From a virus (taxonomy: Duplodnaviria > Heunggongvirae > Uroviricota > Caudoviricetes): a DNA stretch of 5,832 nt. The translations under genes and the position numbers were made by a program. The DNA lies in IMG/VR virus record IMGVR_UViG_2534681772_000006, positions 1 to 5,832 of that record; one strand, written 5' to 3'. Under the pieces are notes generated by a model, which was not told the DNA's origin, made no database searches, and saw only the letters and a program-made list of their open reading frames with translations. Shown here piece by piece: positions 5,020 to 5,480 of the stretch (its first letter is position 1; each line of letters starts with the position of its first letter).

Positions 5020-5400
5020 CTACTGTTCGCTTAGCTTCTGCTTCAGCAAGTAACCTTCGAGCATCCAGATTTTGTTTACAGCATTTTGCCGGGCAATCTT
5101 CCGACCAATTTCTGCATCAAAGTTTTCCGGGCTTGCACAGGCACTCTCTCCGGTGACGGTGAAGCCATTCTTCAGCACCAGTACGCAGAAAGTGAGCAAC
5201 TTCAATGGTGATAAATCACGATCGCCTTCTTCTGGTTTTTCCCTGCCACAATATTCGTTGCTGGAAATGGCACCATTACGTCCATCATAAGCAGTAAAGT
5301 AATGCTCGCTTTTAATCACGTCTTCGATGTGCTGCGGAGTGATTCTCGGAGCGGTTTTGCCTTTCTCAACGATTTCTTTTTCGATTTGCTGGTCGTTCAT
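5020..5400 (-). CDS. Gp49-like phage protein (N4 Gp49 / Sf6 gene 66 family), function unknown
   Basis: 126 aa. The motif LLTFCVLVLKNGFTVTGESACASPENFDAEIGRKIARQNAVNKIWMLEGYLL is, from memory, characteristic of the Gp49/gene-66 family, which commonly sits just upstream of terminase genes in enterobacterial prophages. AGGG lies about 9 nt upstream of the ATG at 5400. It has no HNH motifs. Confidence 0.6.
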   Translation of the reverse strand: MNDQQIEKEIVEKGKTAPRITPQHIEDVIKSEHYFTAYDGRNGAISSNEYCGREKPEEGDRDLSPLKLLTFCVLVLKNGFTVTGESACASPENFDAEIGRKIARQNAVNKIWMLEGYLLKQKLSEQ

Positions 5401-5426
5401 AATTATGACCCTGTGGAGTGGTTGCT

Positions 5427-5453
5427 TGAACCGCCCCGGGAATCCTGGAGACT
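5427..5453 (+). repeat. Left terminal inverted repeat (IRL) of the IS629-like element
   Basis: TGAACCGCCCCGGGAATCCTGGAGACT is the imperfect inverted repeat of the IRR at 192..218. Confidence 0.7.
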
Positions 5454-5480
5454 AAACTTCCTGAGAAAGAGGTAAACAGG

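Follow-up and report, generated by a model that had tools for sequence, protein, structure and literature searches.

An IS629-type insertion upstream of the packaging genes in the predicted late operon of a defective Escherichia coli DEC13B prophage

The window analyzed here, a stretch of 5,832 nucleotides, is the whole of draft contig AIHG01000047.1 (contig 47) of Escherichia coli DEC13B (GCA_000250335.2), with identical sequence, and at either end the assembly breaks off within an IS repeat. Between two IS ends it carries 5208 bp of phage DNA, in which every gene lies on the minus strand. Read in the direction of the genes, this part begins with an intact gene of the Gp49 family (5020..5400, minus strand, 126 aa; Pfam PF13876, Phage_gp49_66, E=3.4e-35), followed by the terminase small subunit gene terS (4381..4914, minus strand, 177 aa; PF03592, E=9e-24), whose product is EHX54182.1 of DEC13B and occurs as an exact protein on four contigs only, AIHG01000047.1 among them, and by the terminase large subunit gene terL (2907..4427, minus strand, 506 aa from the ATG at 4427), with Terminase_6N and Terminase_6C matches. 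Next come the genes for a portal protein (1372..2907, minus strand, 511 aa; PF06381, Phage_portal_3, E=8.5e-92) and for a Mu F-like head morphogenesis protein (633..1319, minus strand, 228 aa as called; PF04233). The last gene, encoding a DUF2213 head protein, belongs between the Mu F-like gene and those for the cement and capsid proteins; here, at 219..498 on the minus strand, only its first 93 codons are left (408 aa in the intact protein), the gene being cut by an IS at 218/219. The portal gene bears the RefSeq/PGAP name “anti-CBASS protein Acb1 family protein” in E. coli TW10590 and “DUF1073” in other genomes; it has the portal family match given above and stands at the expected portal position, and the Acb1 name for its product looks like a naming error.

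The other end of the window (5427..5832, plus strand) consists of the left 406 nt of an IS629-type element of the IS3 family, hereafter IS no. 1, which starts with TGAACCGCCCC... at position 5427. These 406 nt comprise the left inverted repeat (IRL, 25 nt, 5427-5451), orfA (5481-5807, plus strand; HTH_Tnp_1, E=4e-12), with an A-run at 5799-5804 directly 5′ of its stop codon, and an ALIL frameshift pseudoknot (5762-5832; Rfam RF01497, 64.6 bits, E=3e-15), which is cut by the window end and was the only element returned by an Rfam scan of the whole window. Positions 1..218 (plus strand) hold the right 218 nt of a second element of the same type, IS no. 2, with the C terminus of orfB (3-176, plus strand; rve_2 match) and a 25-nt right inverted repeat (IRR, 194-218), and the two IS pieces are thus in the same, direct orientation. 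The IRL of the first pairs with the IRR of the second at 23 of 25 nt, and a repeat scan of the whole window found the IS inverted repeats and short chance matches, nothing else. Of two short reading frames at this end, an orfB fragment of 57 aa next to the contig edge is matched, within this assembly, by the window itself alone, and a 146-aa ORF fusing DUF2213 to IS sequence has no match on record.

An IS3-family copy of 1310 bp on plasmid p948 of ETEC strain H10407 agrees with IS no. 1 at 404 of 406 positions and with IS no. 2 at 217 of 218, and a PGAP-annotated IS1203-family copy of O157:H7 strain TW14359 agrees with IS no. 1 at 395 of 406; the similarity at 5427-5832 is far beyond what chance would give. 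Taken together, the two IS ends (624 nt) match the H10407 copy at 621 positions (99.5%) and the TW14359 copy at 606 (97.1%), the latter above an identity threshold of at least ~95%, with these two named copies, rather than the ISfinder reference, as the basis of comparison. The two full copies are each 1310 bp long and share 95.1% identity. Further traits of the IS3 family are present, namely imperfect inverted repeats of ~25 bp, 5′-TG...CA-3′ termini, and orfA (HTH) and orfB (rve) with −1 frameshift signals, in copies that are partial only within the window. Because of the matches to full copies and the ALIL pseudoknot, the name “IS629-like” for these ends is fair.

IS no. 1 lies close to the Gp49 start and is divergent from the phage genes, its transposase being on the plus strand and theirs on the minus strand, as the preliminary description of this DNA had stated in calling it antisense to the operon. 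The same description had placed the IS left end at 5427 and the Gp49 start at 5400, with a native upstream remnant of 26 bp that includes an AGGG ribosome-binding region, and these positions proved exact to the base. The Gp49 ATG occupies 5400-5398 on the minus strand; the remnant, at 5401..5426, reads AGCAACCACTCCACAGGGTCATAATT on that strand and contains the Shine-Dalgarno sequence AGGG at 5412-5409 (plus-strand 5409-5412), 8 nt 5′ of the ATG. The IS left end is thereby 26 nt from the ATG, and both the Shine-Dalgarno sequence and the start codon are intact. The 26 nt are identical in TW10590, in phage Sf6 and in GCA_047262435.1 (L010).

TW10590 has an IS-free version of this phage DNA, 100% identical over window positions 219-5429, and its empty site reads ...GGAAAGACATCCTAATCAAGCAACCACTCCACAGGGTCATAATTATG on the operon strand. 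Since the empty target reads TGA after GCT, the homology extends to 5429; the start of the IS at 5427 and a GCT duplication at 5424..5426 (AGC on the operon strand) are fixed by the reciprocal junction. This junction is found on another DEC13B contig, AIHG01000020.1 (contig 20), as ...CCTAATCAAGC|TGAACCGCCCCGGGTTTCC, the second part being the IS right end in reverse orientation, while the window junction, written on the same strand, is ...GGGGCGGTTCA|AGCAACCACTCC, and AGC is present at both. Such a duplication is a hallmark of simple IS3-family transposition. Excision in silico of IS no. 1 together with one copy of GCT yields an 80-mer that is found exactly in TW10590; the insertion thus involved a 3-bp duplication and zero deleted bases.

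The neighboring DEC13B contigs were located through exact proteins of the TW10590 prophage. The end of contig 20 (247 kb) carries the Nin genes, Q, the P_R′/qut/tR′ region, the holin, lysozyme and Rz genes, a 50-aa gene and the spacer, and then the IS; over the 2052 nt from the P_R′ −10 to the IS junction it is 100% identical to TW10590, in which the order going upstream from Gp49 is a 239-bp spacer, the 50-aa gene, Rz (frameshifted), lysozyme, holin, ~460 bp of non-coding DNA and Q. On the other side, an IS left end in reverse orientation opens contig AIHG01000044.1 (contig 44; 8857 bp); behind it come the other 316 codons of the DUF2213 gene, then genes for a cement protein and the major capsid protein, and E217-like tail genes. 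The placing of contigs 20, 47 and 44 in this order, with an IS at each join, comes from the matching duplications and from colinearity with TW10590 rather than from a spanning read, and it illustrates how short IS-bounded draft contigs can be rejoined through target-site duplications. Every copy of the element is interrupted by a contig break in this assembly. The assembled parts of IS no. 1 amount to 406 nt in the window and 305 nt on contig 20, with the middle ~600 bp absent, and its full length and integrity are assumed. These parts differ in type: the left end is H10407-like (404/406), whereas the right end (contig 20, L037 9288-9592) is slightly nearer to the O157 type (300/305, versus 296/305 for H10407), which would reflect either a mosaic copy or reads from different copies mixed by the assembler; where contigs end in IS sequence, several copies may have been merged into a consensus.

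A chimera or other assembly artefact at the junctions was considered and rejected, because a separate Logan assembly of SRR096910 contains a 5267-bp contig with the same two IS/phage junctions. Among 5426 complete E. coli genomes searched by megablast, no record was found to span either junction, and exact-pattern scans for both found none in genome_contigs or metagenome_contigs. Given the absence of the site from these 5426 genomes, the exact DEC13B insertion is a strain- or lineage-specific event and no new kind of thing.

The junctions of IS no. 2 were resolved in the same way. On contig 44 the remainder of the DUF2213 gene adjoins the IS left end as ...GGGGCGGTTCA|TTCCGGTTACTGC, and the window junction, on the contig-44 strand, reads ...CGAACACATTC|TGAACC, with TTC, that is, the GAA at 219-221, duplicated. 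Removing IS no. 2 and one copy of its duplication again gives an 80-mer exact in TW10590. As each IS has its own 3-bp duplication (GCT and GAA) and excision restores the TW10590 sequence, IS no. 1 and no. 2 are independent simple insertions; an O157 copy of the IS that was checked also has a 3-bp duplication, TCT. The position of the 5208-bp fragment between two directly oriented IS copies might instead point to a deletion or rearrangement marked by the IS, or to a composite transposon, either of which would leave an orphan packaging module without a phage promoter, and a rearranged case does exist in strain OkiPb01684 (L029 4600-5900), where an IS629-type element adjoins an Rz gene that is truncated, and the DNA past it is rearranged. 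In DEC13B, however, both reciprocal junctions are in the same assembly, with different duplications, and excision restores a sequence colinear with TW10590, so that we give this explanation next to no credence. The composite transposon in particular was rejected, each IS being flanked at both ends by its own, different duplication.

We then considered the promoter from which the packaging genes would be transcribed. In TW10590, the sole strong promoter-like site is P_R′, 2073 nt ahead of the Gp49 ATG and at the 3′ end of Q; a consensus scan of the minus strand of this empty allele, from P_R′ to Gp49, found no other promoter-like site. On DEC13B contig 20 it reads TTGACA-18-CATAAT (11/12 consensus), the DEC13B Q protein is 171/172 identical to that of TW10590 and its gene is intact, and the lysis and morphogenesis genes are co-oriented downstream of the promoter. 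The closest model is the late operon of Sf6 and phage 21: the P_R′/qut/tR′ region matches the annotated features of Sf6 (phage-21 type) at almost every base, with nearly identical P_R′/tR′ sequence, Sf6 has the same order of holin, endolysin, Rz, 50-aa gene (gene 65) and Gp49-family gene (gene 66), and conservation between Sf6 and the DEC13B prophage extends to the spacer and to the 26 nt that precede the start codon. Because P_R′ is the sole strong promoter and the late gene order is as in Sf6, Gp49 is predicted to be a mid-operon gene of a Q-dependent late transcript. The initial proposal that it is the first gene of a packaging operon is therefore not retained, as there would be no separate operon but a single late transcript. 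A native promoter within 5401..5426, which the preliminary description had raised as a possibility against its own reading, is not predicted in the empty allele and was rejected, as was one elsewhere in the spacer, which is conserved with that of Sf6, whose only annotated late promoter is P_R′.

The preliminary description had also suggested comparing the locus with an IS-free prophage, and this comparison, made with TW10590 and contig 20, shows what has been displaced by the insertion: the 239-bp spacer, the 50-aa gene, Rz, lysozyme and holin, and P_R′ with qut and tR′. The claim that the IS separates the genes from their promoter holds in that P_R′ is now beyond the IS, at ~3.39 kb from Gp49 as compared with ~2.07 kb without the IS, but the promoter is displaced by 1313 bp and not lost. 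Downstream of Gp49 the likeness to Sf6 ends, since the P22/Sf6 set is replaced in DEC13B by Terminase_2, Terminase_6, Phage_portal_3, Mu F and DUF2213 genes and by tail genes of an E217-like myovirus type, and homologues of Sf6 genes 67/68 are absent. In an IS-free relative (L030 11000-17700), a lambdoid early, Q and lysis region is likewise joined to E217-like myovirus tail genes (E217_gp27, gp28, gp31 and Gp32 domains); a lambdoid early region with an E217-like myovirus tail is an unusual mosaic.

Based on the gene order and on the promoter, we consider it highly probable that this is an IS629-type insertion in the 239-bp spacer of a Q-dependent late operon, with expression downstream by Q read-through, and neutral in a decaying prophage. 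The element transposed into the non-coding spacer between the lysis cassette and Gp49, antisense to the operon, with P_R′, qut, tR′ and Q remaining intact beyond it and P_R′ as the sole good promoter predicted for the packaging genes. After induction, Q-modified, terminator-resistant polymerase would run antisense through the 1.3 kb of the IS, and expression of the Gp49, terS, terL, portal and Mu F-like genes would need this read-through, which, by analogy with other lambdoid phages, we infer to be the likeliest route. In lambdoid antitermination, the Q-modified polymerase ignores intrinsic and Rho-dependent terminators. Two terminators are already on its path, tR′ and a hairpin resembling an intrinsic terminator (GGCCGCTACTGCGGCT then TTTTTTATT; 527..542, minus strand) between the Mu F-like and DUF2213 genes. 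The hairpin ranks first in the terminator scan table and would stop polymerase without antitermination, and the presence of a good intrinsic terminator inside the late operon fits with reliance on antitermination.

The opposite outcome would be a polar insertion, in which late transcripts end within the IS, either by the action of Rho along 1.3 kb of RNA that is not translated, or at a weak hairpin and T-run of the IRR, and the packaging genes stay silent even upon induction. The antisense IS RNA would indeed go untranslated, and there is a weak terminator-like site (CCGGGTTTCCTGG then AGAGTGTTTT) where the antisense transcript enters the IS; this IRR hairpin, however, has 5 pairs only, lies within chance (2 found versus 1.1 expected) and is the sole terminator-like feature on that path. 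In addition, the late promoter has an intact Q gene and qut/tR′, and a polymerase modified by Q, which is established to ignore terminators, already passes tR′ and the 542-527 hairpin. Also weighing against polarity, DNase-protected DNA from induced O157:H7 cultures was assembled into complete Stx2a phage genomes with one to three IS629 copies (PMC4587872), one of which lies downstream of stx2, hence of pR′ (PMC4587872). These genomes are a precedent for read-through, although no test of it, and on this evidence we regard polarity as unlikely.

A third route to expression would be an outward promoter supplied or created by the IS end, driving the packaging genes independently of Q. The preliminary description had found no convincing −35/−10 pair at this end, and we concur: a consensus scan of the minus strand from 5400 to 5480 returned no promoter-like site, and the only hit nearby is inside the Gp49 ORF, no more than chance predicts. 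With a weight matrix, a candidate spanning the junction was obtained (−35 TTCAAG at 5430-5425, 17-nt spacing, CATAAT at 5407-5402; 8/12, 7.0 bits), the junction having raised the score of the CATAAT site from the 3.2 bits that it has in the empty allele (−35 ATCAAG), as well as a candidate within the IS left end (TTTACC-16-TAGTCT, 6.5 bits). Neither passes the consensus scan, however, and sites of ~7 bits occur about once per 670 nt of background strand, against 12.7 bits for P_R′. Transcripts from the hybrid site would begin within the Gp49 ORF, past the ATG; the consensus scan found no IS-borne outward or hybrid promoter whose transcript would include the downstream start codon. The junction promoters of IS3-family elements (IS911, IS2 and IS3) combine an outward-facing −35 in the IRR with an inward-facing −10 in the IRL, whereas the end that faces Gp49 here is the IRL, and any transcript without antitermination would stop at 542-527 at the latest. 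Q-independent expression of the packaging genes from the IS end is thus very improbable, although the weak candidates of 7.0 and 6.5 bits may give some IS-associated transcription. More doubtful still is that the junction-improved −35 (ATCAAG to TTCAAG) allows terS, terL and portal to be transcribed at a low level without Q in a prophage incapable of making capsids; if this were true, the cell would have a standing pool of terminase, with other prophages or pac-like sites as its possible targets.

The consequences of IS no. 1 for the prophage were then assessed in light of its other lesions. IS no. 2 cuts the late operon again, 5.2 kb downstream of IS no. 1, in the DUF2213 gene, and a third IS629-type left end (IS no. 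3; AIHG01000044.1 8521-8857), which is in sense with the operon, shortens an SLT-domain tail gene to 316/604 codons. Because IS copies break the DUF2213 and SLT genes, the prophage is defective, and unable to form particles unaided, regardless of the effect of IS no. 1 on transcription; it should be scored as such, with three IS insertions, two of them in structural genes. For the same reason the question of expression on the Gp49 side is largely moot, and the importance first attached to the insertion was overrated. Taken most simply, the intergenic IS no. 1 adds another case of IS629-type insertion into prophage late operons, a neutral event in a prophage that is decaying in a genome rich in copies of this element, and is of little import beyond annotation. 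Further signs of decay are seen next to Q and in the lysis genes: the Ser/Thr phosphatase gene adjoining Q (contig 20, L037 6052-6722) is split in DEC13B, with 157 + 51 aa versus 223 aa in an IS-free relative, and Rz (L037 8474-8878), called as 134 aa in DEC13B, is flagged by PGAP as frameshifted in TW10590 over identical DNA.

Insertion of an IS629-type element near prophage packaging genes is an ordinary, already well-known kind of event. In O157:H7, 62% of IS629 copies are in prophages or prophage-like elements (PMC3271280), and IS629 is a main source of variation among Stx2a phages (PMC4587872). The DEC13B copies share with the IS629/IS1203 elements of O157:H7 lambdoid prophages the 25-nt repeats, orfA/orfB with the ALIL signal, the 3-bp duplication and 97% identity over the ends, as well as, with those of O157:H7 and other pathotypes, the late-region habitat and the occurrence of multiple copies per prophage in both orientations. 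They differ from O157 IS629 in their host, DEC13B, and in being closest (99.5%) to a variant found on ETEC plasmids such as H10407 p948. The same interval is hit elsewhere too: in 2013C-4081 (L028 4100-5400), the stretch from the lysis genes to Gp49 contains an IS1203-family copy, antisense, that splits a Rha moron, with the prophage continuing on both sides, and in GCA_047262435.1 (L010 3856-4001) an IS629-type copy occupies the corresponding spacer in sense orientation, 108 bp 5′ of the ATG. The interval between the lysis genes and Gp49 is variable, many prophages having morons of the Rha, KilA-N or T5orf172 type in it. DEC13B and TW10590, which are identical from P_R′ to the DUF2213 break in the regions compared, apart from the IS, thereby form a natural near-isogenic pair for testing IS polarity under Q antitermination.

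The Gp49 gene itself is widespread, its exact 126-aa protein being indexed in 6816 blocks of the searched collection. In one other phage context (loci L008 and L009; 3300-4381) the identical protein is encoded on the strand opposite to its neighbors, adjoining a Head-tail_con gene, and its gene is preceded by unrelated DNA with a tRNA-like 3′ sequence at its end. On account of this identical protein with unrelated upstream DNA, the Gp49 gene seems to move as a cassette with a boundary close to its start codon. In phage Huey (PQ850609.1, 37785-38303), one of the features annotated where the Gp49 region matches is named “anti-CRISPR protein.”
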